This document shows positions 2,593 through 51,100 of a DNA stretch of 64,000 nt, piece by piece. The stretch's first letter is position 1, and each line of letters starts with the position of its first letter. The translations under genes were made by a program, and so were the position numbers. Source of the DNA: Sphyrna mokarran (taxonomy: Eukaryota); NCBI GenBank assembly GCA_024679065.1, contig JAGIQG010000014.1, positions 25,482,001 to 25,546,000 on the forward strand, given 5' to 3'. The notes beneath the pieces were generated by a model, which was given only the letters and a program-made list of their open reading frames with translations, was not told where the DNA came from and made no database searches.

Positions 2593-2937
2593 CTGGTTTC
2601 ACCTTCAGTGTGACTCCACAGCCACACCAGTCGTCAGCTTCCTTCTCGTTTTGACAAAAGTACCTGGCCGAATCCTCTGGTTTCACGTTGTCGATTTTTA
2701 AAGAGTATCTGCTCTCACCGGAAAAACGGGGCTCGATCCCCGGCATTCGGGTAAAACTGCTGGATCCCTCTCTCCAGGACACGAGCCACTTGACCTCGGT
2801 GGAGCCGGGAGGTACATAACCCCACTTGGTAAGGAGATTAGTCAGGCTGATTCCACACTGGAGTGTCACCGATTCTCCCTCCTGACTGAACACAGTGCTG
2901 GATGGTAGGTGTAGAGCCGTGTGGGAGAAAAGTGGGT
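2593..2937 (-). CDS. Gene B exon 2, V-set Ig domain with built-in J-like G strand
   Basis: Acceptor ttccatttcag|AC. Translation has EGESVTLQC (B-strand Cys), KWGY (C-strand Trp), RFSG, SLKIDNVKPEDSARYFC (F strand), then WCGCGVTLKV. 345 nt, phase 1-1. Confidence 0.92.
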
Positions 2938-3078
2938 CTGAAATGGAAAATAAAAGAGATGGGAATTGTTGAGGAGAATTCCAGCGAGGACAACGTGAAG
3001 ATGAAGACAATGTAGGGAGCTTGGCTCTTTACCCGTCTGGAGGACAATCAGAAAGAACGACCAAAACATCCTTTGCAT
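2593..3078 (-). CDS. IgSF gene B (5' part: leader + non-rearranging VJ-type V exon); paralogue of the + strand receptor, continues left of the window
   Basis: Leader exon 3033-3078 and V exon 2593-2937 are joined by a 95-nt GT-AG phase-1 intron. The V exon ends at a phase-1 donor (CCA G|gtaag). No downstream exon is recognisable in 1-2592. Confidence 0.85.
3033..3078 (-). CDS. Gene B exon 1, signal peptide MQRMFWSFFLIVLQT (an in-frame ATG at 3084 would add MK)
   Basis: Hydrophobic leader ending ACG G|gtaaag. Same length (46 nt) and phase as the gene A leader MQGMICSFLLLALQL. Confidence 0.85.
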
Positions 3079-6372: not shown

Positions 6373-7569
6373 CTGAACTATAACTGAAGGATTGATGAAG
6401 ACAGAAGGGATAGCATGAAATACCCTGAGTTGAAGATGTCCCACAACATTGAAGATGCAATTTATGATTTAGATGGTAAACTCACTTGTGTCTCACTTGT
6501 TTCAGTGAATCAATTAACAAGCGTGCCACGGCTTGGGACACTTCAGCTTGGAGATAAGCTCCCAACATGTTGGAAATCTTTTTATATATTAACTTTTTTT
6601 GAGTACAGTAAAGAGTCGCTGAACTGGAAATTTAATGCATTTTTATTCTGCAATACATCTGGGAAGCTAGTTAAGCCTTATTTTCAGAATCTTTACCAGC
6701 ATGTTTAGTTACCTCCCATTGGTAAATTGCTTGCGTACATCGTCAAAAGCTTTTTTTTGTCTCTGTTCTTGTTACTCTTCAAAACTGTCCCATCTCCCCT
6801 TCCTCTTGAAGCTTACTACCAACTACTCACTACTAAGTTTCTGACTTCTAAGCTTTATTTCTCCAATATGATGATGAAAGAATGTTTCCTCTTGTGGGAG
6901 AGATTAAACATATTTAAAACATCAGGGGTCTTCCATTTTGAACCGGAATGAGAAGAAAAGCTTTCTTTCACTGGGCCATGAGTTCTTAGGTTCATAATGC
7001 CCTCAACTGCAATATCATTACCAAATGCTGTGTTCCTCGTTCAAATCACACCTTGTTTAAATCATTTCAGTCTAATGTCTACCTTATCTGCACTACCAAA
7101 TTACCAAGGACATTCTTTGTGATTATGCACATGACTCATTAAACCTTCTTGTCCGTATTGAAGTCCCCTAATTGTCTCCTATTCCTCATTTAGATGCTTC
7201 CTTTCAGTTAGATAACCTGCATGTGTTGGGACTAACTTCTACACGTATCCAAAAACACCACTACCTCTCTTCCACCACATTTAACTTCATTACCACTGCC
7301 GCAGCAGTTAGCTTTTTATCTGAAATTGTCAGGAATGTATCAGACCTTTTTCCAACTTGGCAAGACTTCACTTTTCTTTCCTTCAGTCCTGCACTGAATA
7401 TCAGTGTAGATATTTTTTGTGGAGTGGAGTGTGAGCCTGAAACATTCCAGCTCATTGGCAAGAGTTCAGCAGGTTAACAGTTCAAATTTTAAGTTTGTTT
7501 ATTAGTATTACAAGTAGGCTTACATTAACATTGCAATGAAGTTACTGTGAAATCTCCTTGTAGCCACAC

Positions 7570-8103: not shown

Positions 8104-8149
8104 ATGCAGGGGATGATCTGCAGCTTTCTCCTGCTCGCCCTGCAGTTGG
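8104..8149 (+). CDS. Gene A exon 1, signal peptide MQGMICSFLLLALQL
   Basis: ATG at 8104, hydrophobic core, donor TTG G|gtaagc, 85-nt intron to the V exon. Confidence 0.88.
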
Positions 8150-11100
8150 GTAAGCAACAACCCTACTGCTCCCCCCAACAAAAATGTTTCTTTCCTCCAC
8201 TTGCTTGAATATTTCTGTCTGTCTTTCTTTACAGATGCGGTGTTATCTAACGCTAATTTGAGGATTGAGCAGACAATTGTGAACGGCCGAGAGGGAGAGA
8301 CGGTGAGACTGGGATGTACAAGCAGCAGGAAGGAAAATGATAGCCTGATGCGGTGGGGTTACGTACCCGCTAACTCTACAAAAATCAAATGGCTGGTGTT
8401 CTTGAGTCCGGGATCTACAAATTTCGCTCGAATGGAAGAGATCGAGAGCCGTTTCTCCGGAACCAACGAGAGCAACTTAACCTTAAAAATCGACGACTTG
8501 AAACAGACGGATTCAACCAAATATTACTGCCAGAGTGAGCTTGGCAAAAGCTGGTGCGGCTGTGGAATGATTCTGAAAGTGAAAGCAGGTAAGTGGAGAT
8601 TCATTAGGGGGAAATAATGATTGATCTCAAATGTTAACGCCACAACCGGAGAGGAGTTTCCCCGTGTGCTATCTGTAAGGCTGTGTCAACTCTCCCCAAA
8701 CAGCTAAGAGGGAATTTGGTTGATGAGTTCATCTATTCACTGTCAAGTACCTCGCAATATGGTAGCCCTCCCCCCGACTGACTGCAGAAACTTGCAACAG
8801 TTATAAACTGAATCACGGGATAGTTTATTGCTCAATCTTCGATGGTCTTAGGAAGCAATTGAAGCAATTCACTCTATAAGAGTCATCAGTTCTACACATC
8901 TAATCTTTATTGGATGCTGTATTGGTTCTGATGTGTTCTTGTTATTGTTGTAGCTTGGGTCTTTTCAACCAGCAACTTAGTTGTATGTTATGTGGGACAT
9001 ATTAGTGATCTATATCTGGGTATGCAGAAGACAATTTCATAGCTTATCGATGATACAAAACTCAGAAGTATTGCGAACTGTAAGGAGGACCATGTAGAAC
9101 TTTAAAAGGGTACAGACAAGTCGTTGGAGTGGGTAAATAGGTGGCAGATGAAGTTTAATGCAGAGAAGTGTCAAGTGATGCATTTTGGTAGAAAGAACTT
9201 GGGGAGACAAAAATAAATAAGGGATAAAATTCTAAAAGAGGTGCAGAGCAGAAGGATCTTTTTTATTATGCATTTGTGGAACTTAGTGGATGACCAGTAT
9301 TTATTGCTCATTCCTTGTTGCTCTTGGAGGGCAGTTGAGAATCAACTGCATTGCTGTGGCTCTGGAGTCACAAGTAGGCCTGACCAATGGCAGATTTTCT
9401 TCCCTAAAGGACATTAGTGAACCAGATAGGTTCTTTCAAGAATTGACAATGGTTTTATGGTCATTAATAGATTCTTAGTGCCAGTTTACTGTATTCAAAA
9501 TTCACCATCTGACATAGCAAGATTCGAATCAGGTCCCCAAAACATTAACTGAGTTTCTGGATTAATAGTCTAACAATAATACCACTAGGCTATCACCTCC
9601 CCAAAGACCTGGACCTTTCTGTGAAAAGATCATTGAAGATGGCAGGACAGTTGGAGAGAGCATTAATGAAACATATGGAATTCTGGGCTTTATTAATAAG
9701 AACATAAAATATAAGAGCAAAAAGATTATACTGAATTTATACAAGATATGATTTAGACCTCAACTAGAATATTGTGTATAGTTCTGTGCACCACATTACA
9801 GAAAGGATGGGAACACATTTGAGAGAGTGCAGAAGTGGTTTTATAACAATAGTTCTAGGGATGAAAAACCTCAGTTATAAGGATAGACTGGAGAAGTTGG
9901 GACTGTTCTCCCTTAGAGCAAAGACTAAGAGGATAATTGATAGAAATGTTAAAAATCATGAGAGGGTTGGGCAGAGTAGATATGGAGAAACTGTTGCCAT
10001 TTATAAAAAGGATCACAAACGAGACAGCACAGATTTAAAGAGATTTCAAAAAGAAAAAAATTTTTCATACAGCAAATGGTTTGAGTCTGGAATTCACTAC
10101 CTAGAATTGTGGTGGAGACAGGTTCATTGAACTTTAAGATGGCAATAGATGATTATTTGAATAGAAGTGATATGCAGGACTCAGGGAAAAAGCAGGGGAA
10201 TGGCATCAATTCACAATGCCTGTTTGGAGAGCCAGTACAGACACAAGGGGCCAAATGGTCTTCTGCCCCGTAACAATTTCCTCATTTTGTGAGGCAATGG
10301 TATAAAGCTCTTCCGGAGAGCATCCTGGGTTGAGCGTCCTCCTTGTGCACTAGAATTCAATGGTCAAATGTAGACATTAATACCAAGTCAGGTGTTATCA
10401 TCAAAAGTATCAACATCTGAAGTGTGCACACAAAAGTTACAAGAATTAAATAAACAAACCAATCAACAGAACGAGCACCAAATTAGACTTATTTTAGCCA
10501 CAGCTTTAAAATTAGGGTTAGAAAATATAAGGGCAAAATATAGCAAAGCCACTCAAACAATGATATAAGCTTGCACATTGTGAATGTTACAATAGCAGGA
10601 AATTCAGCTAACCAGTTGTTATCTTCTAATCTTAGCCATCATGCCAAAAGCACCTTCAGTTTATCTCTTGCATCCATCTCCTGAGAAAATGTCACAGCAA
10701 ATTATCAGCAAACTTCTTTGTGTGGTGAGCAATTTCTACCCAGAAGCTATCTCTGTCTCTTGGTACATTGGCAGCACCCAAATATCTACGGGGATTTCTA
10801 CTTCGGGCATACTGATGGAATCTGAAAACAGTTACACAACTATCAGTGAACTGGTAGTATCAACCTTTCAATGGGTCAGTGGACTTCGTTACACCTGTGT
10901 TGTTTCACATCAAGCCCTGTCTTCTCCCATCAGAAAAATGATCAGTATTAATGGTAAGTGAAACAAATAAGTTTATTTGAAATCTCTTACAAATTAATTA
11001 TCAACAGCTACCTTTTAAATTAAGAATGCAGAGATTAATACCAGTTAGAGAGCAAGATACTGTCAGGGGACTTATCTATTGCTTGGTTGGCATTTTGGTC

Positions 11101-17100: not shown

Positions 17101-20100
17101 GACACTTGGAATTGGGCCAGTGTCTGCGGGAGTTTGCGCGTTCTCCCCGTGGTTGCGTGGGTTTTCTCCGGGCACTCCGGTTTCCTCCCACAACCCAAAA
17201 ATTCGCTCTTAGGCTGATTGGGTAACAAATTGTCCCTATGGTGAAAATTTTCCATATTAGGAATAATATATATATTATTATATAGGAATATTAAAATAGG
17301 ATAATGTATTTGGTATGATGGCGGCGCGGGCTCGTTGGGCTGAAGGGCCTGTTTCCCGTGCTGTGTTGCTTAATAATAAAAAAAAAATAATGAAAAAAAA
17401 AATAAAATAAAAAAAAGTGCATCTCAAGCACGAATGCTGGGTGCTCGGCAGTCATCTGCATTGCAGTGCTACACTTTGGCGTTGGTGTTGTCCAGTTAAT
17501 TTAGCTCATTTGTTATCACCACTACAATGGCTGATTTCTGGTATCACAGAATACGGTTTATCAGTTTGTAGAGGCAAATTTAAGCCAGGATTGATGGTAT
17601 AGCACCCAGTTCTGACCCAGGACCATGGAATAGAATGGATGCAATAAAAGTTATTTTGATGAGTTGTTATTGGCACACTTATTTAGTAGTGTGGGAGATG
17701 CCATATCTGCATAAATACAAGATTTTACATCTTCATTCATGTCATCTGCATTGTGGGCATGGCTTGAAGATGGTCAGTTTGGCAGCATGATACATCATTC
17801 ATGATCAATGGCATCATGAGAAGCAAGTTTGCAGGTGACAGCAAGAATGGATAATTTTGAAGAAGGTGGTTGTAGGTGACAGGAAGATATAGATAGGTTG
17901 GTGAAATGGGCACAGCAGTGGCAAATGGTATTTATCCCAGATAAGTCCCAAAGTGACATTTTAGAAGAAGTAACAAGGGTGTATTTAATGAATAACAAGA
18001 CATTAGGAAGCTCAAAGGAACAAATGGATCTTGGGGTACTTAGTCACAGATCCTTGAAAGCAGGCAAGCATGTGAATAACATGGCTAAGAAGGTATATGA
18101 CACACTTGTTTTTATCAGCCCTGGCATGGAGTATAAGAAAAAGGAGGTAATGTTGGAGCTGTACAGAACATTGGTTAGGCCACAGTTGGAGTACTGTATG
18201 CAGTTCTGGTCACTTCACTCTAAGAAGAATGTGATAGCATTAAAGGGGTTACAGAGGAAGTTCACCAGGATGTTGCCTAGGATGGTGCATTTGAACTATA
18301 AGGAGACACTAGATAGGCTAGGATTGATTTCTCTAGAGCAAAAAATGCTGAGGGTATGTAAGATTATGAAGGGTATGGGCAGGCTGAATTTGGAGCAGCT
18401 GTTCCTGTTAGTTGAAGGGTCAATCACGAGGGGACGTAGTTTTAGGGTAAGGAATTGGACATTCAGAAGAGATCTGAGAATTGTTTTTCACTCAGAAGGA
18501 GGTGGGAGTGTGGAATGCACTGCTTGGGCTTGTAGTGGAGGCCTGAAACCTTACAATCTTCAAAAAGTATTTGAAACATCATAACCTTCAAAGATGTGGA
18601 ACGAGTGCTGGAAAATGAGATTAGTGCCGCTTTAGTAATAGTTATTGTTGGTGCAGACTCAACGAGTCTTTCTGCACTGTATGACTTATCTTCATCTCAT
18701 TCAGAATGGCTTGAATGTCATGGGCTTCCTCTTCCTCAGAGATTGGAGCTCTGCCTGTGGCTTTGCTGTCATCTAGTTGAAGGCTCCTCCACTGTGCGAA
18801 TGTTATGCAGTATGCAGCCAACAATAACTATTCTTGAAACCCTTGCTGGAGAATATTGGAGAATTCCCCCTAACTAATGGAAGCATTGGAACCCGATCTT
18901 TCAAATCCCAATGGCCTGCTCGATGATGTTCCTGGTGATAATATGGCTACTGTTATAATTTTCTCTACTGCCAATTATGGATTCTTAAAAGGGTTGTTAT
19001 CTACGTTCTGAGGAAGTAACTCTTGTCCCTTAAGGAGTAATTCACATACCTGGATAGGTCGCTAAAATAGATTGGGGAGTTATGAGTTCTTTAGTGTGAA
19101 GGACTCATGGTAGTTGCCTGGGAAACTTGCACACACTGATTATGGTCGCAAACCACCTGCACATCAATCGAGTGGAATGATTTACGATTCACGAAGGTGA
19201 GTTGAGCTTTTAGGGAAAACATGAGTGGAGTCAATGATACCCTGCATCCAGAGGAAACCATCAATCCTGACAAAGGCTATGCTCAAAATCCATGCCAAGC
19301 TAACAAGTTCTCCCACATGAGCCTCTCCATCCACAATCACATACTGTTATTCTCATCTACAAGAGCTACTGCTTCATAGCAAAAAAGTCAGCCATTGTGT
19401 GTTTTATCCGCTGTTAGAGTCATCAGGTTGTAACTGCAATGCACCCCAATATTAAGTGCACTCCATATCTTGGCTCTCAAGTTCTGAATGTCTAATCGAT
19501 TCTGCTTTATTGCAAAATTATTGATGCTGTGTGACCAGGATACACTCTGCCCTCTGTCCTCACTTAGTATGTTTTAAATGCATTTGATCTGATGTATGTG
19601 ATAAAGCTGTAACAATTGATTTAATTTCTTATCTAATAATGTGTTCCTGTCTTTGCTGTAGATGATTATATTCAGGCACCTGTCATCCAACTGATCTCTC
19701 CCCCTCTTGATGCAGCCTCTGCGAGGCTAACTGTTGTGATAAGTTGTTTGGTGTCAGACTTTTACCCTGCTGCTATCTCTGTGACTTGGAGAGATGAGAA
19801 TGGGCCAGTGGATACAGGACTGATACAGTTTGCAGTGGCTTTGGGCAGTAACAGCACCTACCAGACAGTGAGCCAGCTCACCGTGCCAACAGCAGAGTGG
19901 GAGAATAAAGGCACTTACTGGTGTGAGGTGAAACATGTGTCTCTTGAACAGCCAATGCTGAGAGCAGTCAGCAAGGATCTGGGTAAGATCTACTTTCATG
20001 TGCTTGTGTGTATATAAGTATCTGAATAGGAAGTTGAGGTGCCTGTGTGTGAATGATGACATTTGCAAGATGAGTTTCAGAATGTTTGAGTTGATGGGGT

Positions 20101-23100
20101 TTGCAAGTGTGGTCGGTGTGGGTGTAGTTGGGGCAGGGATGGTTTTATGGATGATGTATGATAAGGGATGGAAGAGTTAACAATTCATTTGTAACCTGGA
20201 CTCCATGAATATAGCTCTGGGACCATTTATACTTTCTGTAGAAGTCAGTGGTTTGAGGAAAAAGACTTTCAAAGCAGCAGAGAGGGGAAGTGTGAATCTA
20301 ACTGTTAGTTTCATATATGCCTTGGTTTACACATAGTGTGAGTATTAAATTGTAAAGATCAGTTTAGGAGATTGTGTGGTGCAGTGCTGGGTCCCTATTT
20401 CTCAGCATGAAGCTTTGGGTTTAGGTACCTCTTCAGGATTTGATGGCCATAGAAGTATGTCAAATATGGTCAGACAGGATGACGAGCAGCCTGTAGATCC
20501 TGCCAATGCACCTACTAATAGTGGGTGGTAAAAGTGGCATAGGACAGATCCCTACTCACCCATACCAGACAAGACTATGGCAAACCATTGGATTGGTTAT
20601 TATGCTTCACAATGGAAGTCGATGGTTACCAATATCCTCTTAGGCCATGATACCTGGAGGAGAAGGAAAATCAAATTAAAGCCAGTTTAATATATTCCTC
20701 TACCAAAAAGCCTCGCCACTTATTCCTCAATCAAGAAATTATTTAATTCCTATCATAACTCTGCCCTATTTGAAAATAGATCTATTGACTCCTTTTCTTA
20801 AAAGCAATGATGTCCGATGGAAACTTAAGAATGATGGCTCCGCTGTGGACTTTTGCTGTCGTGGGAGGGTCACTTTTAATTATTGCTACTGTTATTCTCA
20901 TCTACAAGAAAACGGCATCTTCCACCTGCAAGATAGGTGAGATTGTTCTTTATTGCCCTATGTGTATAGTTGAAACATTGGCACAATTTAACACAAGTAC
21001 TGTACCACCACTTCCCATAAAGGACTCCATCCCATTCTCCCAATTTCTCCACCTCTGTTGTATCTGTTACAATTATGCTACCTTTTGAAATGGACATGTC
21101 TTTGTTTTTCCTGAATTGAGAGGTCTCCCCCCCCACCCCACCACTCCACAACCTCCACCTCCCCCCCCAATCCCTCCAAACCACCCACCCCCCCATGACT
21201 GACAATACACTTAACCATGCTTGACCCATCTCCCTCACCTCTGCCCTCACCCCTTCAACCTCCCTCCCAGAATCATGACATGGTTCCCCCTTGTCCACAC
21301 TTTTCTCCCCACCAGCCTCGGCATTCAAAAGATCATCTTTCGCTACTTCCGCCAATTCCATGATTCCAATAAACCGTTGTTTGAAATCTAACTGTGAAGA
21401 GAAAGTTATATCAATACACATTTGTAAATTATTGTAATAACATTTAGCAAATTACAGTTTCTTCCTATGTTTCCATTTCTTAACACAGCCAACTTCAGGG
21501 AGACATTAAGCCTGGATACCAGTCCGGAATCCATCTATCAAAATGTCAATTATAAGGTACTTGGACCATAGTCGCGTGTTTGAATCATGGGGGAGGTGTG
21601 TCTGTGTCATACATTTCAGGGAATCTCTTTGAAGTATAAGACATGACTGTTACAGTCATGGTGATTTACATTGCACCCTTGCACAGATCTAGAGAACGTA
21701 TGCACTTCATTTAGATATCGAGACATATTAAGTCAGATTATTTTGAATTATCTGATCAATTTTTAATCAGAAAGTCACTCTTTGAGTTTATAAACTCAAT
21801 CTACTGGATAATTCAGATTTTTGTTCAAACACCAGCAATGAATTTTTAACAGATGGCAAAAATAATTTGAAGGGTTTCTATTCTGCTAAATACACAGCCT
21901 GTTCATCTTAGCAGTTAAGCTTTTGCGAATGCTGCTGTTCTGTTATTCCAGTGTGGTTCTGAATGTAGTTTTCATGATTGATTAAACTAAAAAACAGAGT
22001 AATATTATATCTTAACTGAGATCAGAGAAACATCTATCTTCCGACTCTCAGACAGCAGCCTCCAACGAAAGACCAATCTTCACACAGATCTTAGGGGATG
22101 GGGGAGCAGAAAATACCTCCTGCCTTTTGCAGATCTCTGGCGAAGTATCTATTTTCTAGCAGGTCTCAGACTTCAGTTTCCAGACAGAGAAACAGCTGAT
22201 TCTCCTTTTCAAATTCAAACAGCAACTGCCTGCTTGTCTCTCTGCAAGCCTAGTTCCACCTGTTTACATGACTTTCTTTTTGTGTAGCAGCCAAATGAAA
22301 CTCTACACTGAAACCATAGGGGACAACCCAAAGTAAAACAAAATTGCATTAACTCAGATTAAAATGAATACCCGAATAACTGGGAACAATTATTCTTCAA
22401 CATGCAGGCTGCTGGTTGTCGACAAATTGGCACTGTTTAAGCAGAGTTGAATTTTAACATTTCCTTCACAAGAAACATGGCATAAATACATTTCTTAAAG
22501 GTACAGTAGTGTCACATGTTAACTTCAGTCGACTTCTTTCCAGGCTTTATTCCTTGAAATAATTTTGGTTTTGTCATAGTATTGCTGATTCAGTGTTACA
22601 ATTTTCATCTGCCATGTGACTCCTGGTCAGTGCAAGACAAATCTTTGATTCCTCTCACTGTTCCGAGGTGGCACAATGGTTAGCATTGCTGCCTCACAGC
22701 ACCAAGAACTCATGTTCAATTCCAGCCTTGGGAGTTTGCACTTTCTCCCCATGTCTCTGAGTGCTCCAGTTTCCTCCCACAGTCCAAAGATGTGCCAGTT
22801 AGGTCAATTGGCCACACTAAATTGCCCCTGAGTATCCCAAGATAGATAAGTTAGGTGATTAGCAGGGTAAATAGGTGTGGTTATGGGGAAAGGGCCCGGA
22901 TAGGATGTTCTGTCAGAGAGTCTGTCTCTGCCAAACAGCTGCCTTCTGAACTATAGAGATTCTATAATGCTATGCTTAAAGGTTACATCAGACATAATTT
23001 GACATTATTATGCTTTCCAACAATTGTGAAATGAGTAATGAGATGATGGATAAATGTAAAAGGGAAGACAGCTTCATATTTTGGATGTCAGCCTTCCTGC

Positions 23101-36179: not shown

Positions 36180-39100
36180 CTTTAAAAGTATAGCAAAGAA
36201 ATGTTAAAACAGTAACACGGACATTTGTCACAGAAAACCCTCACCTTGCCGGGTTGAATGACGACAAGCAGCATCAGTGAGTTAAATAATCAGTCAAATT
36301 CTGCTTTTATTACAAACGTTCATAATAAATTTTACAGTAAAAATAATGAAAATGCTTATGAGCATTTACACAGTGACCTATGAATCCTGGTCCACAACAA
36401 ATTGCAATGAGGATTGCATCATCTTTGCTTATTTAACAACCCCTAATGCAATGCAATGAACCAGATTTTGCCAAAAAGGCTTATAAACACAGCAGGTAGT
36501 CATTAAAGCACAAATAGGCCAGCAAATTGTAGAAAAGATGACCTATTCCATAAATTGAAAACTACCACCAGTTTCTGGCTGATTTGTACCAATTCACTTT
36601 AAGCTCATCACTTGCTTAACCTCCCATAATTTTCAGAGTTTTATTTCCACGTTAACTGCCAGTAAAACTCAAACACAAAGTTAAGACTAAAAGAAAATAC
36701 TGCGGATGCTGGAATTTGAAACAAAAACAGCAATTGTTGAAAAATCTCAACAAGTCTGACAGCATCTGTGGAGGTGGAAAACAGAGCTTACATTCGTCAG
36801 AGCTGAAGACAAAGAAAACAGGACAACACTTATACTGTAAGGGCAGAGGTGGAGAGGTATAATTGACAAAGATGTAATAGACAAAAAGACAAAGGGAACG
36901 TAAATGGTAATAGTTAAGGCTGAGAACGGTGCTAAAAGAGCCCATGAAGCTCACTTTTCATATGAAACACTATTTCATGTGCATCTTCTTTAATTTGCTT
37001 TATATTCGCTGCTCCAAATGTGATCTACTCTACATCAGAGACCAATGCAGACTGGCTGAGTGCTTTGCAGAACATCTTCGGTCCATCCACAAGCAGGACC
37101 CAAACATTACTGTTGCTTGCCATTTCAAGACACCATCCTGTTCTCTTGTCCACGTGTCTTCCATGGCCTGTTGCAATATTCCAGTGAAGTCCAATGTGAA
37201 TTGGAGGAACAGAACCCAGTTTCCAATTAGGCATTTTACAGCCTTCCAGGATTGAGTTAAACAACTTCAGGGCATGAACTCTCTCCTCCACTTCCACTCC
37301 ATTTATTTTTATCTTATTAATCCATTTGTATTACTTGCATCGTTTCATTTGTCCACTTTTTAAAAATCTCGCTTTCCATTGTGTTCTGCCCCTCTCCTAA
37401 GGGAATGCCTCAGGTGGTCCTTTGACACTCTGCACCCTTTTTCTACCATTTACACATTCCAATCACTTAATGGGCTGCTATTAGCACCATTCTCAAGTCT
37501 TTACTACGATTTATATCCCTTTTTTTCTGTCCATGACATCTTTATCAATTACACCCGCCACCTTACAGAATAAATCTTGTCCTGTTTTCTTTGTCTTCAC
37601 CTCTGACGAAGGATCATCCAGACTTGAAAGATTAGTTTTATTCCCTCTCCACCGACGCTGTCAGACCTGCAGAGATTTTCCAGCAATTTCTGACAAAGTC
37701 CTGTAATTAACAATGCAATAATTCTTTTATTGATGTAATAATTATTAAAGGTTGCCAATCAACATAACTTGTAAAGAAATAAACAATTAAAAAAGTTACC
37801 TCAAGATGAAAACTTTCAGAATTAAAAATGTCTAATTTTAGATCGTCTTTTCTTTTTTACATTTCCTAATCCAAGGTTTCCTTCCCTTGATGTACCTGAC
37901 TTGGCACTGAATTCATTCACCCTAATGCACTTTCTCAGCCCTTCCACTGTATCTTTCTCAATCCTTCAATCTCATTGATTAAAGAGAAGAAATACTTTGC
38001 CTATTGTTAATCAAGATCCCAGATGGCCTGCTGTCTTTGTCAAATTATCAGCTTAACACTTCAAGCAATTGTTCAGGCAATTTCGTCTAAACATGCAATT
38101 GTAAATATAACTAATTGCCCATGTGCTACTGCAACAAAAACTGACACTTACACATATATATGTACTTCAGTGCATGATGAGATATATATAATTATTGTTC
38201 ATTTTTCCATATCAATATACAATAAAAATTGCTCAATTAAACTGCTCAGTTTAACTCTTGTTGAGTTCAATACTGATAATTGAAGTGGAAATACATCTTC
38301 TAGAAACTATCTAACCAGAAGATGTGCTGCTGCAAAAAAACAATGCATCAACGACTTAATGGTTGTCTCATTCTTCAAATTCTGATCTTCCACTTAATAG
38401 GATCACACAGATGGTTTGAAATACTTTATTTTTCACATGAATTACATGCACTATTTGATCCTTCCCCTTCTGACAATACACAACTCCACACTTGGGCTAC
38501 CTAGAAGAAATGCTCCACATTCTGAAACTGCCTGTTCTTATCGCCTGGTTTAGATTGAATGACTAAAGATAGAAATTGGAAACTATTTGAACATTGTCTT
38601 CCTTCTTCAAAAAGGAATGCATGTGGAAAGAAAGAAAGAAAGAAAAATCTACTTCTCTTAAAATTCAGACTTACCTTGAGTCTCTGATAATGATCAATGG
38701 TGCCGCAATGAGTCTGCTTCGCTGTCTCTTCATTTGTGTAGAAGAGACAGCAGAGCTTGCAATAATAGCCAGTTTTTGGAACCACATAATCTAACCCTGA
38801 AAGAGTATATAATGCTTTATTAGCTTTCTGATCATTACAGTGCAAGTACTTAAATATTACTGAAGCAGATACTGCACATATTATTCCTGGATATGTTGCA
38901 CAGAAATGCAAAGCACACTGGTATATATTATTTAGAAGGAAAAAAAAACATAAGGTAGAGTTCAGATATTACAAACTGTATACCAGCTTACAGAAATTAC
39001 AAATATACAGAGTATTTATTAATATCTACAGAATGGCAGGACCAATGTAATGCGCTTAATCAAGAAGCATGCATTTTCCATTAAAAATGCAAGCCACAGA

Positions 39101-42100
39101 CTGATATGGTACCTCAGTTTACAAAAAATTTAAAAAGTACCTACTCTGATGCCTGACACTATGGAAGATGATATACTAACATTAGTATTAAGCTTTATCA
39201 AACACTGTTAGTTACTCAGTGCTTCTCAGCATTTTTTTTGTTGTAAAACTCAATGGGCCCAATTTTACTATCACGTTGCACCTGTTTTTGGGCACGAAAA
39301 CTTGATAAAGTCAGACATGAAACAGGTAGCGTGATCCGTATCCATCTCCCTGCCAGTTCCCCCTTTACCAAGGACCGAAAATGGCCTTGTATGCATTTAA
39401 ATAGACTTAATAGGCACATGCCCAGCTTTACGAGCACTTGCCCCTTTACCACTGCGTTTGCCCATCCAGAATTGGCACGAAACAGACATACTCCATAGAA
39501 GTCTGATTCAGGCACAGTTAGTGAGGAAGTAGATGGCAAGCATCCAATGGCTCTGTGCTTGTGTGCGTGTGCATGTGAGAGAGAGAGAGAGAGAGAGAAA
39601 GGGGGTTGTGTGGGGTGGGGTGGGGGAACAAGATGGAAGCATTATCCAGCCTGGGAGGCTTGTGGCAGGGAAGTTGGAGGTGCCAACGGTTCCAGTCGCA
39701 TTATGTCTCGTACACAGGCTTGTGCAGCACAATTCGGAATCGTGATATTTCTGTAGGCAGAGCACGTGGATGGGTAATTGTGGGGAGAGGGTTCCTGAGA
39801 ATGAGTCTAAAAGTTGGGTCTGAAACACACCCAGCTTCAAGTCCACCCAGCATTTAGAATCAAAATGATAAATTAGGGCCCTTGTCTCAATTTGAAATGT
39901 GAAGAAATTGCTTAAAAGCCTGGAACAGCTACGATACAAGCCCTGCCTCAAATTTTGAATGAACTTTCTGGATCAAAAACAACTAATATTAGGCCATTGC
40001 TTCTTAATTAATCTGTTACTTAACCTATTCAACAAAAAATCTATGACTGAAAAACAATACCAAGACCCAACTAAGTAAGTCTACAGCTACAAAATACATC
40101 AATCAGTAGCGACAAAGGACCAAAATATTTAGTCCTCTTAAATTTAGGATTTCTGCTGTGTAGTCCAGTTCCTGCCTAGTGACAGTGCCATTCAAGACAT
40201 TCACAGGTGCAAGAATCACAAACATTGAATTTGGCAGCTAATATTAATGTTAATGTTGCAGTTGTATAAAACGCTAGTTAGACCTCATTTGGAATACCGC
40301 GTCCAGTTCTGGTCACCCTACTACCGGAAGGACGTGGAGACTCTGGAGAGAGTGCAGAGGAGGTTTACCAGGATGCTGCCTGGTATGGAAGGTCTGAGTT
40401 ACGAGGAGATATTAGGCAAATTGGGACTGTTTTCCTTAGAAAGACGTAGACTTAGAGGAGATCTAATAGAGGTGTACAAGATTATGAAGGGGATAGATAG
40501 AGTAAACAGGGTTAAGCTTTTTCCTAGGATGGACTCAAATGGCACGAGGGGTCACGGGCTTAGGGTGAGGGGGGTAAGGTATAATTTGGATGCTAGAGGG
40601 AGTTTTTTCACACAGAGGGTGGTGGGGTATAGAATGCGCTGCCAAGTAAAGTGGTGGAGGCAGGTAGTCTGGAGTTATTTAAGAAATACTTAGATGGGCA
40701 CATGAACAGAATGGGAATGGAGGGATATAGAAAACTGATTTAAAATAGGGATCATGAGCCTCGGGAGTCCCTGGGAAGTGTGTAAATAGATGATGATATT
40801 GATGTACTTGTTTTTATCCTACAGGTGCTTTGGTCTGCCTTGTTGTCTAACGAGGGGCATACATGTGATGGTCATGAGAGGGCTGCTCTTGGATCTCTTT
40901 CGAGTATCCTAGTGCTTCACTGGGAAGTGTACATAAAGTACACTTGACCTGGACCATTTGATGGGCAACACGACAGCTCAGTGACTATCGCTGTGCTGTG
41001 CAGATACATGGATTTGGGCCTGTGTCTGTGAGAGTTTGCGCATTCTCCCCGCACTTGTGTGGGTTTCCTCCAGGCGCTCCGGTTTCCTCCCACATCCCAA
41101 AGCTCTTAGGCTAATTGGCAAAACAAATTCTCCCTAAATTGTCTCAAATTTGGTTTTTAATCCATAGATCTATAAACATGGACATGGATCGTGGGCAGAG
41201 GTGGGAACATCGGGGTGGCGGCGGCGTGGGCTCGTTGGGCCGAAAGGCCTGTTTCCCGTGCTGTTTTGTTCTTTGTTCTTAGTTCTTAATTAGTCTTGGT
41301 TAAGTTTAATTTTCACTCTGGAGAAAAGGGCTTTTCAAGGTCACTTTCTAAAGATAAACTGCAACTGCTCCAACATGAGCTCCAACAAGTTCAGTTTAAA
41401 ACTTGCCAAGCCATAACCTTATGCTCAATCAACTTTATTGCTGGGAAATCATAAGTTGATATATCTATCAGCCATGACCTTTGTCATTCTTCTAGGAATG
41501 TACTAGACTTTGTTAAAGAAAAAATGCAAAGAGATTGCAAGAAAAAAAACATGAAAACTGAACAATTTGCTAATTTCTAATTTGCTAGGGCCATTCAAGG
41601 ACCTACGAAATTTTGGGAAATCATACTCAGTGAGAACGATTGATGACAATAAGTTTGAAATTTCGTGGCTGAAGAGAAAATGGTTGGAATATGTTGTGTG
41701 ACAATAGAATCATGAACACATTATAACACAATCTAGCAAATATACTACAACATGAAGAATCAGAATATTACAGTACTTTTTTAATCAGTTGAGTGAAATG
41801 TTTCTAGGCTTCTTCAAATGAGAATTGTAAGGTACCATAAAATGAATGCAGATGGACTCACTTTTGGAGCCTAAATCTAACAGCCACCTGATACAGCTAG
41901 GATGCATTTTCCAGCTACCTCATTATAAAGGAACACGATACAAAGCATACCAAAATATCAATGACACCAGAGAGAGGGGCAAGAGGGAGGGAGAAGAAGG
42001 GAGGGGGCAACAAGAGTCAAAGGGATGATAAGAGACAGTCTCCTGTGGAGAAGTATATAAAAAAGAAAGCCACTGGAAAGGACTGAACTTTTTTTTTGTT

Positions 42101-45100
42101 TGGTTATTATTCTTCCAACAGTAGTTTTTAAACTTGAAAGACAGACCCAGGAGTTTTTAGAAGGAAAAATAAGTTTTTTTTAAAAGAGAGTCCAGAAAGC
42201 GTGTGCATAAATGAAATAAGCTGCAAGTGTGAAAATGAGCAATGCTATCTGCTACCCGAGAATCACAGAATCCCTACAGTGCAGAGAAGCCATTCAGCTC
42301 ATTGAGCTTGCGCCAACAACGATCTCATCCAGCCCTATTTCCGTAACCCTATCTATTTATGCTGTTCACCTCCTTGACACTAAATGACAGGTTAGTATGA
42401 CCAATCAACCTAACCCACACATCTTTGGAGTGTGGGAGGAAACCCACACAACAAAGAGAGAATGTGCAAATTCCACACAAACAGTTACCCAAGGCTGCAA
42501 CTGAACCCAAGTTCCTGTTGCTGTGAGGTAGCAGTGCTAACTACTGAGCCTCTGTGCCATCACTCCCCCATCATATCGTGTAGGCTTATCCATGAAGAGT
42601 TAGCTTTTAGGGGAGACACCAAATGCCTGCGAACACCTACTAAAAATCACTTGAAGAATCAGCAACTGTATGGAGAATAAAAGAAAATAAATTAAGAGGG
42701 GTGGTAATTAATGTTAAAAATGCTGAACTAGTGATCATCAGAAGCTAGTTCAAATTCTACCACAGCAGCTGGGGAAATTAAATTCATTAAATAAAAAATC
42801 CAGAATAAAAGGTTAACATCAGCAATGGTGACAATAAAACTATCAGACTGCGATTTAATAAATCTGGTTCACATCATTTAGGAAAGAAAGTCCGCCATCT
42901 CTAAATACTCTGACCCAAATGTAACTTCATAACACACAATGTAGTCGAATCTTAACTCCCTCATGGCTTAGCTAACTGCTCAGTTGTATACAAGATAGTT
43001 CTTTTCAAGGGCTTTTAAGGGTGTGGAATAAATGTTGGCCTTACCAGTGTCACCTACATCCTATGAATATTAAAGAAAACTTACCTACAGGATTGTTGGG
43101 TTTATACGGCCCAAGCTTGTATTCATCTGGAAGAGGAGACAGCGCCTGGATCTGTTCGCTTGACGGTTCTTCACACATTGTGGAATTGTTTCCCTTTGCT
43201 TCTTCATCAATTTTTCTATCAGCTTCGGGATTTTCATCCATATTGTTTCTTAGATTAAACCTCTGTCTTTCAGCTTCTTGTTCACCTTTGCTAACATCAG
43301 CATCCATTTTGTCTGTTTGGTCAGATTTTATTTTCGGAGCCAAGATACCATGCGGGTCATCAACCTCATCAAGGGCAAAAAACTCATCTATGTATTCTGG
43401 ACATCGTATGCCTTCTGATCTCTGAAGTGAAACAAAAATTACAATAATACAAATAAAACATTACAGGTTCAAAATGTGATTCAACAGCTTCACTGTACAC
43501 AGAAGTTCACTTGCAAGATGTTTGGTTGCTCCAATGCCATTTTTGGATAAGAGAACAGAATGCAACACTCGTCTCTTTGGGTGAGTCCGGTAAAGATGCA
43601 ACTGTCTCAAAACCATCAGTGCATATAATTTCATTTTAGAATTAAATTACAGATATTCTGAAAGCAAGCAAATGAGTATAAAAACAAATTCATACAGTGA
43701 GGTGAAAACTCAAAAAGAATTCAGAGAAAACAGGCAGGGTAAAAAGAGATGTTTCTACAGGTAAAGACGATATAAAAGGTCTTTCAGATTTAGTGTCGAA
43801 ATTCAGCTGGATCAATGCTGGAACTCAGGCAGCTTCTGCTAAATAGTGCTAAAGACACCACCAACAATCAATGAATGGTCCAAAGGCAAGTCAGCAACTG
43901 TTATACTCCACCATTCAAAATGAGAAACGTCATCACGCAGCACTCGATTAATGGCCAAAGGTTTTTTTCACCAACACTGGAGTAGATGAAAGGACAACCT
44001 TTTGTCTTTTGTTTGACTATACAAAGCAATGTAGCTCTACAAATATTATTTTATGTCAGAGAGTTCCTCTGTGCTTAAATGGACTCCAAAATGTTCTAGA
44101 TAAACAGTTCCAAGTACTGACTCACCATTCCTCCCCAAATCTAACTACACATTCTCTCGTTTGTGAGGAACTTGGATGTGGTTGCAGTGACAGAGACGTG
44201 GTTAAAGGAAGGGGAGCAGTGGCAACTGAACATTCCTGAGTATAAGTGTTTCAGGCGTGACGAGGAGGGTCCAGAAGAGGTGGAGGAGTGGCCTTGTTAG
44301 TTAAGGAGAGCATCACGGCAGTGCAGAGGGAGGACAATACAGAGGAGATAGGAGTGGAGTTGCTGTAGGTGGAGATGAGGAATAGAAAGGGGGCAATTAC
44401 TATGCTAGGGGTGTATTATAGGCCACCCAACAGCCCACGGGCAGTTGAAGGAGGCATATGTAAACACATTTTGGATAGGTGCAGAAAGAACAGAGTCGTT
44501 ATAGTGGGAGATTTTAATCTCCCTAGGGTGGATTGGAAAGTACCTAGAGCTGGGGGTTTGGATGGGCAGGAATTTGTAAAATGCATACTGGAAGGATCAT
44601 TGGAACAGTATGTGGCTAGACCGACTAGAGAGGAGGCTATATTGGATTTAGTTCTGAGTAATGAGCCAGGGCAGGTGGTTGATGTTGTAGTAGGGGAACA
44701 TGTGGCTAACAGTGACCACAATTCTGTCTACTTTAGGATTCAGATGGAAAAGGATGCTTGTTGCCCTAGGGGCAGGCTGTCGAATTGGGGAAGGCTAACT
44801 ACGGTCGGATTAGGCAGGAACTTAGGGAAACTGATTGGGAACGGTTGTTTGAGGGTAAGTCCACGCTAGGCATGTGGAACTCTTTCAAGGGAATACTGAA
44901 AATGTTGCAAGATAAGTACGTGCCGGCCAAGAGGCTCTTGGATCTTTTTCAAGAGTATCCTACTGCTTCACATTGTTAGTGTATGCTTGACCTGGACCTT
45001 CTGATGGGCAACATGACAGCTCAGTGAGTATCGCTGTGCTGTGCAGATACATGGATTTGGGCCTGTGTCTGTGGGAGTTTGCGCATTCTCCCCGTGCTTG

Positions 45101-48100
45101 CATGGGTTTTCTCCAGGTGCTCCGGTTTCCTCCCACATCCCAAAGATGTGCTCTTAGGCTAACCGGCAAAACAAATTCTCTCTAAATTGTTTCAAATTTG
45201 GTTTTTAATCCATAGATCTATAAACATGGACAGGGATCGTGGGTAGAGACGGGAACATCGGGGTGGCGGCGTGGGCTCGTTGGGCCGAAGGGCCTGTTTC
45301 CGTGCTGTTTTGTTCTTTGTTTCTTCCTCCCTCCTTTCGCCGAGTAAAAACCTGAAGCAGCTATTTGCTTTTCTTTACAAAAAAGTGAGAATTTTCTAAC
45401 ATTGGTTAGCTTTATTCATTTACTTTAGTTTGAAGAGAAGACTGATGAAGTCAAATAGCATAACTATCAGTATCAAAACAATCAATCATTTTTGAGTTTG
45501 GTCATATGTACAGAAGTGGATGGTGGAAAACTGAGCAGTTGACTGGATTTTAAAATGATTTGTACCTTTGAAAAGTTAATGCAAATATAAAGCTGGATGT
45601 GATTCACAACATCAAAGCAAACCATGAGTTGAAATGGCCTGATGACTGAGATGTATCCGATGTGTAAACAAAGGGATGGTTAATGTAGTCTCAGCCCAGT
45701 AGCTGTGGGACTGCTTCTCTATGGATATTCTGCTTTGCTCATTGCTGACCACATATCATAATACATAGTAAAGTCACTATAACAAGTCATCAAGATTCTC
45801 AATACTAGTGCTGCAAGAATTATGATGTCCATTGACTGAGTCTACACTTCCCGCTGCCTCTGCAAAGCAGCCAGCATAATTAAGGACCCCATGCATCCCA
45901 GACATTCTTGCTCCCACCTTATTCTGTCTGGAAAAAGATACATAAGTTGGAAGTCACATACCAATTGACTCAAAAACAGCTTCTCTCCTGTGCCATTAGA
46001 CTTTTGAATGTACCTACTTTGCATTAAGTTGACCTTTCTCTATACACTAGCTGTAACTGTGACACAACATTCTGTGTTCTCTTGTTATGAATGATATGCT
46101 TTGTCTCTATGCTGCACAAGAAACAATACTTTTCATTGTATGCTAATACATGTGACAATAAATTAAATCAAAAAAATCAAAAACTTATCTAGTGCAAGGA
46201 TCTCTCTGAAGGCTAGGTCCACGTGCAGTTTTTCTAAATTGAAAGAAATCTTGGAAGCAGATAGAAAATGAGAACTGCCCCATCTAGTGACTTAACATCA
46301 AAGGAACTAAAGAGAATGATGGCTTTTTGGAAATGGGATATCCTGCAGTAGAGAACAGCATAAGAATAGCATGCAGAGACCACAGCAATTCTCATCCATT
46401 GTTCACAGGGAAGTGAAAAGAATTTGCCAAGCATACAAGATTATCATACAAATTTCTTCAAAAGAACAACTTTCTTGAATATCCACCCCACCACTTAAGA
46501 ATGGCGATATTCAATATGTGTGTGAAAGCTACATAAATAGCATTGGGTTTGCACTTAACCATTGTTTTGTGCTGCCATGTTGCAATTTATAAACAGCAAC
46601 TCATTTCAGACTCCAGCTGCAGCAGGATAAATAGTTCTTGTGAAAGGGAGGGGAGAATAGACAAATACTCTTGTTAAAAAAACCTTCTCTTGCCTGATAA
46701 CTACTATAATAATTTTATCTTCTTGAACCTTTATGTTTCTAGTATCTAATATGGCATACAATCATTGTCCCTACTACAAATACACACTAAACTGAATCCA
46801 GACTGAAAAATGACTGAAATGCAAGAATACAAGCAGTCATAATACCTGAATAAAAAGGGTATGAACCCTGTTAGAGAAGCATGAATCCATAAACAAGTTT
46901 CACTCTTTTCTGTAATCCAAATCATACATACTTAATATTGTCAGAATATTTAAACAAACTATGCCTACCTTTCCAGATAATCGTGCTGAGATCTGAGAAC
47001 CTGACTCTTCATCATCAACCTCCTCTTTAGTTTCACATTCACTGAAGTGCCCAACTTCTATATCTGGTTCCAATTCCACTTCCATATCGTCACCAGGTTC
47101 AAACTTGGCTTTCACTGATTCATCATAGACCAACAGTAAATCTTCTGCTCCATCTTCTTCATCATTATCAGTGTCTGGTGAAGGGCTGCCCTGTGACTTT
47201 ACTTTTGCAATATTTTCTCCTTCCGTTTGTTTGGAATCTTTATTTTCCTCCGTTGAAGGAGAGTCCATCTGTGTACTTTCGTGGTCGGTTTCCTTCGAAT
47301 TCTTGGATTTATCTTGAGCCTTTCTCTTATTGCTGGGGGATCGTGCTCGTTTAGAAGGACTGTGAGAACGACCCCTTTTCCTGAAATCAAACATCCACAA
47401 AAACATGAATTGAATTATCAGGCAATTCAAAAACTACCATTATTAGTGTTTTCCTAAAGAAAAATGCCAGGGTTTCAAACGCACTGTTGGTTTGTACCTT
47501 TGACTACAAGCTCTTGATTTTAGTCGATGTTAAAAGAACAGGTGCCAAGAATTTGTCAATATAGGAAAAATAATAATCACTCACAGCATTACAAAATGGT
47601 CTAAATACAAAAAAATTATTGGCTTTGAATCTAATCACGGATGATTGCATTTGCTTTCTGCTCCAATCTTAAGACTGGAGGCATCAAATGATGACATCAG
47701 CAGGTTAAAATCACTCTGAATTCAAAATTGTCCATAATTATGTCTTAATTAGTAATTGCACTTATAAACACTGAAAATTCAGTGCCTCACTAAGGCCTGT
47801 TAACCATCTCACTTGTGTTTAATTTATTGATTTTTGTTTTACTTAGAAGAGTATTAACTCTGAAGATCAGCTGACGTAAATAGATGCCTTGATGCTCCAG
47901 GAGAGGACAGTGCTCTCTAAGGTTATAAACAAATCTGATATTTAGTCTGAAAAGAATTGGTGGTTGAGTGGAAAGATTATAACAATTTTTTAAGGTCTTT
48001 ATTTTTTCTTTCCTTTCAACATGCTGCAATCCATCTATGATGTCTGTCATTAAACCCACAAGCTTTCACTAAAGACGTTCTGAAATTAGCAGCAATGTGT

Positions 48101-51100
48101 ACAGCAGAGCTGTCTTTAATTGCTAATGCCTGCATTATACTCCAAAAAAATTTTTACAAAATACTTACACACTGCAGATATTTCTAAAGATAAATTTCTA
48201 AATTATTATCTAATGCAGCTTAATTACATTTGCTTAACTGTCCTTCAAATAAGTTTAAATAATTCCCAATGAGTTACTATTGAAACTTAGCCAACATAAA
48301 TAAATTGAATATTTAAGTACGCAGCTTACCGGTTTTCTCGCTCTCTGTTTCTTAACAGTTCGTCAACTCCTTTGCCTTGTTTCTGAAAGAAGAAATAAAA
48401 TATTAATTCCCTTGCTGCCACCTGAGTTAATTTTTGAAGTAGCAGAAAATTCTTAAAGTACAATACTAACTCTTATGAAGGAGCTCACATGTTAGACAAT
48501 TTAAATAATTTGCTTATTAAAGGTATGAGAAAATATGTCATCATTCTGCTACTAAAGCACCAAACCCAGCAGTAAAACCCACAGTTTTAAGAAGTCATTC
48601 TGCATGTGAGATTCAATTGTTCTGGTACTTACTATGAATATCTACTTCCAACTATTTAGCTATTTAAATTACAAGTCAGTACTGCTCAGTAACACTGTTT
48701 ACTGGGACAGTGTTTGTTCTACTCAGGCAGCAGTGGTTTTCTTTGGTTGAGGTAAGTGCAAGTAACAGTAACAATGCAAGTTGAAAGGGCATTTTTGCGT
48801 GCCAGTGAAGTAGATTGATTTTGTAAATCCCAAAGCCAACATTTCAATAACCATATCCAGCTACTCACTGGGCTCAATCCTAATAAATAAAATTTAACAT
48901 TAACATATGACTTACCCTCAATACTAGATTTTTATATTTTTGAGACAAATATACTTTCAGCTCTCTGCCATGGAACATAAGAGGTATTTTCTTGAACTTC
49001 TCAATCATGGCCATTGCTATTTGGTGTGTTTCCATTTCCAGGAAAACCTGTAGTTGAAACAAAGGATCATTAGGAAACGTAACTAAGATTGGAAATTGAA
49101 CCAAACAATCCCTACAGTTCAGAAAGGGGCCTTTCAGAGCACTGAATCTGCACTTACTCTCCAAAAGGGCATTACCCAGGCACTCTTATCCTCTATATCC
49201 CTGTGACGCTGCACACAGAGCACAGCTAATTCACCTAATCTGCACATCCTTAGAGTGTGCGAAGAAACCCATGCAGACACGGGAATAACGTGAAAACTCC
49301 ACACAGTCACCCAAGACTGGAATCGAACCCAGATCCCTGGCCTTGTGAGGCAGCAGTGCTAACCACTAGGCCATCCCTCCAATAGGTTCAGCACCACAGC
49401 AGAAATAGACTCACTACAGGCAGCCATGTATTTAATTTTCAAAAGAAGTTCACTTATAATTAGGAATGGCCAGAAATCTTACCAGGGAAAATAACATTAA
49501 CACCATCTTTCCAAGAAAATATACATTTGGGCAGCAGACATTCCTTTCTCTTACTGTGTTAGTTCAGAGCCTTCATGTTAAGCAGATTTATTGCGACATA
49601 CCTAATGATACTACAATCCTTAAAAATAATTCAAATATTTACTAACAATCAATTGTGCATAATCCCTTCTTGAATCTAACAAAGCATCATCCCTAATATC
49701 CTTTTATAGCGTGAACATGAGTAACAAGTAATTCTCACCTCACTTAAAATGCTTCTGCTTTTACATGAGTTTGATCATTCAACATTATAAAATGCATGAC
49801 TCAGTTACTTTGCCTTCTTATTATTTTTATTGTTTTCACTTTTAGAACAGCACTGATGTCACAACCGCATCAGCATGTGTCATCTTCATAGTTGACCATC
49901 TACTTTTACCTAACTATTCATATTTACCTTCACTCCTACCCATCTCAATTTTCTGCTTATGTCATAATGTCAATATTTTATCTTAATATTTGCAGATACT
50001 ACTATTGCCAATAATTAATTCCAAATTCAAAACTTGGATCAGTGAAGCAACAGTTAGTGCAGTTGAATGAATCAATACCCATGACTCAAAAGTAAGAGGA
50101 GGAGAGAGGAATGGTTGGATGGAGCACTTCCCATTTACAGTTTTGGTGCATGAGATCATGATCACCTTTAACATCTCCTCCATGCCTATCCTGACCTGGA
50201 TATACTTAATTGCCTCTTTGTTCTCACTAAGTCATCATTTCTACCTAACAGCTTTGTGGAGCACCTTCATGAAGTAGACTGCAGCAGCTCAAGGAGACCA
50301 TCATCACTTTCAAAGGCAATGAACAGACGGTAATGTCAGCCTTGCTAGCATTGCTTATTTCCCAGAATTTTAAAGAAAATTGCTAAGCAAATTGCATTAA
50401 AAACAAGTTATGTATTAAAATTTTTCCACTAACTGTAAGAATGAGAGTAGCCAATGACAAAAAGGTCTGAAAATTCATAACATGGAATCATGTAATTTTT
50501 GCACTTTTTTCAGAACTGGGATTTCTGAAGCTCTCCCCTCCTGGTGTTGGGGAGGCAGAAGAATTTAAAAGGACAGAATTCCCTTATGCTAATTCAGAAT
50601 TCCACTAAACAATGGAAGTCCTCCCCCCCCTTTAATACACATCAGTTTGGGAACAAAATGACCAACAAATGCTAAGTTAAAATAAATGTTAATTCTATTT
50701 GAATGATTATAACTGTCAAATCCTAATAGGATAAAGAAGCAAAATCAAGGAACTTGCAACACACACTTTAAATAGCCTGAACAAGGCAAGTCCTGAATCC
50801 TTTGAAACACACTGTATTAAAATCCTGCAACCATTGAAATGCTAATAAGTCATATATGTGGCAGCTATTATTTCAAAAACATTCCTTTCTACCAGAACAG
50901 TAATGTATGATCCAAATAACTTAATTCCTTTTATTAGTCACAAAATATTTCACATTATTGCTGACATTTTGAATTCCACAGCACCTGATTCTTTACTCTC
51001 ATCAGTAGGTAGTTGGTCACTTTTCCAAAGGGTATACCAAGGCATACAATTTCTGAATCAGTGTAGCCAACAGAAGGCAAGTTGCTGATGTGGACCACCC

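Follow-up and report, generated by a model that had tools for sequence, protein, structure and literature searches.

A head-to-head pair of UrIg-family genes in Sphyrna mokarran and the probable interchain role of two J-motif cysteines

Two neighbouring genes of Sphyrna mokarran, here called A and B, encode immunoglobulin (Ig)-type variable (V) domains in which the joining (J) motif contains two cysteines (WCGCG). Both start within the stretch analysed here (the window: 64,000 nucleotides, positions 25,482,001 to 25,546,000 of the forward strand of contig JAGIQG010000014.1, C446 below, in assembly GCA_024679065.1, G000 below; coordinates are those of the window unless a contig is named). We consider it likely that they are non-rearranging, membrane-anchored members of the UrIg family and that these G-strand cysteines join two V domains by two interchain disulfides, as in UrIg2. 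Judging from the trees, A and B are a third lineage of the family, sister to UrIg2 and themselves neither UrIg nor UrIg2. The cysteine chemistry is already known from UrIg2; the new part is the locus, where an apparently undescribed third-branch pair of one long-tailed and one short-tailed gene lies outside both the major histocompatibility complex (MHC) and the T-cell receptor (TCR) complex.

The WCGCG motif and the proposed pairing of V domains

Six-frame translation of the window gave WCGCG in frame exactly twice, preceded in both copies by Y-Y/F-C and followed by L-K-V, which confirms the positions and contexts that the original prediction, made from the letters alone, had given:

8552..8566, + strand: WCGCG in the G strand of the gene A V domain; precursor Cys123 and Cys125, equivalent to UrIg2 C112/C114
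2615..2629, - strand (read 2629-2615): WCGCG in the G strand of the gene B V domain; precursor Cys120 and Cys122

A second-order Markov model expects 0.004 copies in the window against the two seen, which count as one event because A and B are paralogues. The stretch W-C-G-C-G-x-x-L-K-V aligns without gaps to the antibody J sequence T-F-G-G-G-T-K-L-E-I, and in the alignment with antibody J regions the first cysteine stands in place of the aromatic residue and the second at x, while neither glycine is changed; the register proposed originally is therefore the right one. Each V exon has the two canonical cysteines, the two of WCGCG and none besides, again as predicted. In the predicted structure of the gene A V domain (pLDDT 81) both motif cysteines lie within one strand, residues 105-116. 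The same domain (8235-8588) carries four N-glycan sequons (precursor residues 50, 62, 93 and 96), none of them in the A or G strand, and a W-G-Y-V-P at the start of the C strand provides a second family signature.

The constant (C) exons and the stalk had also been said to have no hinge-type cysteines. In gene A, all cysteines of the three C exons and of the stalk are canonical. A correction applies to gene B: its first C exon (G000:C446:25481719-25481402, L009), which lies immediately beyond the window, contains an additional unpaired cysteine at residue 214, four residues ahead of the F-strand cysteine. It is missing at that place in the B proteins of Mustelus and catsharks. Spare cysteines of the B proteins of other sharks sit elsewhere, in the last C domain and in the transmembrane segment.

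The best guide to the function of the motif is UrIg2. UrIg2 reads F-C-S-C-G-T-T-L-K-V in our alignment, without gaps against gene A, and its two cysteines, numbered C112 and C114 in the supplement, form the disulfides A112-B112 and A114-B114 in the structure PDB 9DMX (PMC12227049). Homology therefore supports the V-V interchain disulfides of the original prediction. The V-V interface of UrIg2 is made of the A and G strands, unlike that of an antibody Fv (variable fragment), and beneath it the C1 domains of the two chains pair with each other, the C2 domains stay unpaired as CH2 does, and the C3 domains pair in the manner of CH3 (PMC12227049). In UrIg a serine replaces the first cysteine, and the second is the only spare cysteine of the ectodomain in all three records checked (also PMC10331284). 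Since UrIg is reported to be a disulfide-linked homodimer (PMC12227049), the second position is one that bonds between chains.

By extension from 9DMX, Cys123-Cys123 and Cys125-Cys125 bonds of gene A would span an A/G-strand interface that differs from an Fv, and beneath it the C1 and the C3 domains would each pair with their counterparts by non-covalent contacts. Such an arrangement would make hinge cysteines unnecessary, and there is good support for the idea that two V-V interchain disulfides would take the place of a hinge.

Gene structure and family placement

Gene A, on the plus strand, is an open 523-residue protein with a leader, a single VJ exon, three C1-set exons, a transmembrane exon and a tail exon. 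Gene B, on the minus strand, continues beyond the window into the neighbouring genome stretch and encodes 392 residues (leader-VJ-C1-C1, a transmembrane segment and a short motif-free tail). All exon joins of both genes are predictions from splice signals and orthologue models. The gene A tail has two overlapping matches to the consensus of the immunoreceptor tyrosine-based inhibitory motif (ITIM), a consensus that is general knowledge.

8104..8149, + strand: gene A leader exon (split leader, phase 1)
8235..8588, + strand: gene A single-exon VJ domain (Pfam V-set, 4e-10)
10636..10953, + strand: gene A C1-set exon 1, grouping loosely with UrIg/UrIg2 C1
13361..13678, + strand: gene A C1-set exon 2, grouping with UrIg/UrIg2 C2 (CH2-like); absent from gene B
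19662..19982, + strand: gene A C1-set exon 3, grouping with UrIg/UrIg2 C3 (CH3-like)
20805..20936, + strand: gene A stalk and transmembrane exon, no charged residue in the transmembrane segment
21489..21571, + strand: gene A cytoplasmic exon; ITIM-consensus motifs SIYQNV and VNYKVL at 21530-21562
3033..3078, - strand: gene B leader exon; a further in-frame ATG at 3084
2593..2937, - strand: gene B single-exon VJ domain
G000:C446:25481719-25481402, - strand: gene B C1 exon, before the window
C446:25479154-25478834, - strand: gene B C3-type exon, before the window
C446:25477777-25477640, - strand: gene B transmembrane exon, before the window, no charged transmembrane residue
C446, from 25476129, - strand: gene B last exon, before the window, short motif-free tail

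A scan for recombination signal sequences (RSS) found no match near the gene A V exon and one weak, chance-like match at that of gene B. The last exon of gene B resembles that of gene A, but it is entered in another frame and reaches a stop after a few codons; the same short ending is present in the RefSeq B models of Mustelus and catsharks. The first inhibitory-type motif of gene A (SIYQNV) is retained in a catshark (P0001), and neither tail, A or B, contains an immunoreceptor tyrosine-based activation motif (ITAM), by its generally known consensus. The genes lie head to head with their starts 5 kb apart and a fragment of a long interspersed element (LINE) in between; no upstream or promoter DNA common to both was found. 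Reverse-transcriptase fragments of LINEs are located at 5092-6468 (-), 11874-12788 (+) and 15568-16914 (+), in the gap that separates the two starts and inside introns of gene A, and two of the three carry long open frames (459 and 449 codons).

The best single-domain PDB sequence match of the gene A V was 9DMX (4.6e-13; 7.4e-47 with a profile), also the top Foldseek match of its predicted structure (template-modelling score 0.81); a second aligner put UrIg2 level with antibody V domains, and the ESM Atlas returned generic V-set clusters only. A family pattern that demanded the second cysteine was matched by 25 of 92 proteins (12 A/B-type, 9 UrIg2 and 4 UrIg), including every A/B record available. 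The original prediction had staked itself on conservation of the cysteines in orthologues, and both are kept in all 12 A/B-type records (isoforms included, from five named sharks), as they are in 9/9 UrIg2 records; the four UrIg records keep the second cysteine only. The motif had been put forward as a family signature, and it does mark UrIg2 together with the A/B branch rather than this pair alone. The strict pattern suggested for it, Y[YF]C.{5,10}WCGCG..L.V, recovers 10 of the 12 A/B records and none of the 13 from UrIg and UrIg2. Among other V exons of this genome (20 sampled across clusters from 150 V-set matches) the C-x-C was absent from all 20. A degenerate C-x-C-G DNA pattern run over the whole genome proved too loose (6446 matches).

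Phylogenetic trees of the V domains united A, B, UrIg and UrIg2 with support of 98/98 on all columns, and with the columns of the third complementarity-determining region (CDR3) and G strand removed the same group was recovered in three trees (98/97, 97/98 and 99/97). Within it A and B form a group of their own (92/90 to 97/93), in which B is not clearly one group, and this A+B group is sister to UrIg2 (85/83 to 98/94), whose own clade (100/99) leaves out both genes. These four careful trees followed a quick one of 65 rows and omit P0022 (partial), P0079 (a near copy) and most outgroups, and the last (99/97 for the family, 97/93 for A+B, 98/94 with UrIg2) omits five further rows. In the C-domain tree, built without an Ig outgroup, the second C domain of gene A falls with UrIg/UrIg2 C2 (99/96), and its third, together with the last domain of gene B, with UrIg/UrIg2 C3 (96/94). 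The C1 group is at 92/87 (not starred) and includes the C3 of Heptranchias UrIg2. This grouping by position indicates that gene A repeats the UrIg plan V-C1-C2-C3 with a membrane anchor added and that gene B has, on the same evidence, lost the CH2-like domain. The count of three C domains in A and two in B holds in this genome and in orthologues.

Several features that characterise the UrIg family are found in the pair: a single-exon VJ, a split leader and no RSS, the V grouping, positional homology of the C domains and the cysteine at the x position. The family is also marked by disulfide-linked dimers and by expression in liver or gill instead of lymphocytes. Genes of the A/B type occur alongside UrIg2 in whale shark and bamboo shark, which makes A/B and UrIg2 paralogues. 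For this reason, and because the trees separate them, we have rejected the idea that the pair is a UrIg2 that has moved. Two UrIg2 queries did not find a UrIg2 V exon in this assembly, perhaps because of an assembly gap or a loss. A UrIg2 orthologue is ruled out by the position of the V domains outside the UrIg2 clade, the lack of linkage to the TCR/Ig heavy-chain (IgH) complex and the lack of a C1-C1 cysteine or a stalk of repeated C domains. A UrIg orthologue is ruled out by the transmembrane exons, the two spare cysteines and the existence of a separate UrIg orthologue (L003 on contig C1548). RefSeq labels gene B as 'kappa light chain-like', but germline-joined Ig light chains can also be discarded, since in this genome the joined VJ exons of light-chain type have an intact FGxG and fall in other parts of the tree. 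Two gene clusters considered as PRARP relatives (C1548:81 Mb and C772:8 Mb) turned out to be Ig light chains. Two further single-exon VJ genes have an intact F-G-x-G (L076:94-621 on G000:C994 and L073:196-573 on G000:C1027); the former, on a TCR-bearing contig, joins neither the light-chain nor the TCR group in the V tree.

A different history is apparent in the membrane-proximal domain. Identity between A and B is 87% over 515 bases of the last C exons including intron, compared with 69% for V and 65% for C1, and the fourfold sites that differ are 6/46, 10/24 and 14/25, respectively.

19500..20014, + strand: tract in gene A alike the last C exon of gene B and its flanking intron, 87% identical, likely gene conversion

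The third C domain of gene A in this genome is closer to Mustelus B (89%) than to bamboo shark A (73%), even though by the V and C1 trees the A/B split predates the divergence of those species. A later exchange (gene conversion) between the inverted genes is therefore likely to have homogenised their last C exons.

Proposed homodimers and the alternative readings

If the V domains are joined as in UrIg2, each chain would mostly pair with itself (A-A and B-B) because A has one domain more than B. Disulfide-linked homodimers are the likeliest arrangement, on less support than the V-V bonds themselves. From the tail motifs and the general knowledge of ITIMs, A-A would act as an inhibitory receptor that brings in SH2 phosphatases, and B-B as a non-signalling competitor or decoy. 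We regard as unlikely that A and B instead pair with each other through the same disulfides, with inhibition coming from the tail of A and no signal from its partner B. The head-to-head arrangement would suit such a partnership (in bamboo shark and cloudy catshark, too, the two genes share a contig and have neighbouring ids), and so would the identical spacing of the cysteines and the CH3-like domains kept alike (85% protein identity, 6/46 fourfold differences), although conversion between inverted neighbours requires no selection. With three C domains facing two, C3-C3 pairing would leave the V domains one domain out of step; every Ig exon has phase 1-1, however, so gene A could skip C2 and then equal gene B in length. 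The distance between the starts, the LINE fragment and the lack of common upstream DNA speak against the heterodimer, and UrIg and UrIg2 are both homodimers (PMC12227049).

A bond between the two cysteines of one chain, which would stiffen the end of the CDR3-like loop and leave the proteins monomeric or as non-covalent dimers, seems very improbable to us. The spare cysteines are even in number and only two residues apart, as this would need, but in the model both are in an extended strand, where a CxC ring is strained, and UrIg keeps just the second of them while being a homodimer, which argues against it. The aligned cysteines pair between chains in 9DMX (PMC12227049). Equally hard to sustain is the view that the genes are the shark PRARP, or a CD79-like signalling pair, with a convergent likeness to UrIg2. 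In its favour, the PRARP abstract is said to describe paired VJ genes that carry tyrosine motifs and form disulfide-linked dimers, and CD79a and CD79b are joined by one ectodomain disulfide (PMC10251933). Domain by domain, however, both V and C group with UrIg/UrIg2 (in V trees with neither PRARP nor CD79 among the outgroups), the tails have no ITAM and, as weak evidence, protein searches gave no bony-vertebrate orthologue.

Genomic setting and comparison with known systems

The pair is located on C446 between a P450 gene, which we take to be of the CYP26 subfamily, and a matrin-3-like gene that serves as a synteny marker and is not part of the pair:

38504..49185, - strand: matrin-3-like (MATR3) gene, zinc-finger and RRM exons

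A REEP-family gene follows about 0.27 Mb onward and a TIM gene 2.6 Mb onward; the contig also carries STING and a gene of the eRF1 family. MATR3, REEP, STING, eRF1-family and TIM are presumably genes of human 5q31-33 and not MHC-paralogon markers. By contrast, C1548 carries UrIg and C994 the TCR-type V exons. A position of the 2p13 or 10q type is argued against by EXOC6-family genes on other contigs. To our knowledge the matching human region has no CYP26, so that the CYP26-like gene near the MATR3-like and REEP genes (L012:7101-7475 (+); L013, its first exon close to window -55600) could be a fourth duplicate that has been retained. The matrin-3-like gene is apparently one of two in tandem, the other (L034-L035, -) having similar acidic and RRM exons (L034:2039-2524, L034:6692-7180, L035:7149-7340). 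On another contig (C1, 23.83 Mb; L074:243-629) there is a single J-bearing V exon with F-G-A-G, 0.37 Mb from another REEP gene, with a possible R-R-R-C-P-H tail exon 11 kb onward and no C1 exon in the 60 kb examined. It looks CD8-alpha-like, but a PDB search did not identify it as such, so a paralogy between the REEP location of our pair and the CD8 region is only a lead.

The gene that the RAG transposon split has been proposed to have its nearest surviving relatives in the UrIg family. A 2025 account argues that antigen receptors had a proto-MHC origin from two loci, one in the MHC (UrIg) and one in the TCR/IgH complex (UrIg2) (PMC12227049). Genes A and B, nearer to UrIg2 than UrIg is and on the MATR3/REEP/STING/TIM chromosome, add a third location, to be absorbed by translocation or by an older duplication, and gene A, with its inhibitory-type tail, would offer a direct signalling read-out for the family. 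A bolder scenario, to which we give little credence, is that of a third ancient UrIg branch outside the MHC and the antigen-receptor complex, at a REEP spot paralogous to the REEP-linked CD8-like gene, acting as a covalent A-B inhibitory receptor. If true, sharks would retain a model of the pre-RAG receptor in the form of a fixed VJ-C1 heterodimer, locked by disulfides and equipped with a signalling tail, and the two-locus account of UrIg and UrIg2 would need revision.

Among known systems, the PRARP/VJ-C1 genes (reportedly described in 2019 by the groups of Fu and Ohta) are said to be non-rearranging VJ(-C1) genes that come in pairs and encode membrane proteins with motifs of inhibitory type; unlike A/B they reportedly have a single C1 domain, and motifs on each of the two chains. 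CD79a and CD79b form an obligate heterodimer of single Ig domains with ITAM tails, joined by one bond, presumably at the G-strand position in SCGT/GCGT motifs. The original prediction had chosen them for comparison, and an interchain bond between their V-type ectodomains (Cys119-Cys136; PMC10251933) is indeed similar to what we propose for A/B; the closer relatives are nevertheless UrIg2 and UrIg, and no CD79 chain appeared among the best 60 PDB matches. A literature search that included the supplements of PMC12227049, key PRARP and 2023 UrIg papers being beyond its reach, found no description of the pair. UrIg (tsIgH; PMC10331284) shares with gene A the V-C1-C2-C3 plan with positional homology, the second G-strand cysteine and, as a disulfide-linked homodimer, the proposed state, but differs from A/B in being secreted, in its one spare cysteine (WSGCG) and in its MHC linkage. 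UrIg2 (PMC12227049; PDB 9DMX) has a C1-C1 cysteine and a TCR-bearing contig, A/B neither, together with a stalk of repeats of up to 11 C domains compared with two or three, and none of five UrIg2 tails read has the inhibitory-type motifs of gene A. It is at the same time the closest of all, with a single-exon VJ, split leader, C1-set domains, a transmembrane segment and both G-strand cysteines in register, several of its orthologues reading exactly WCGCG.
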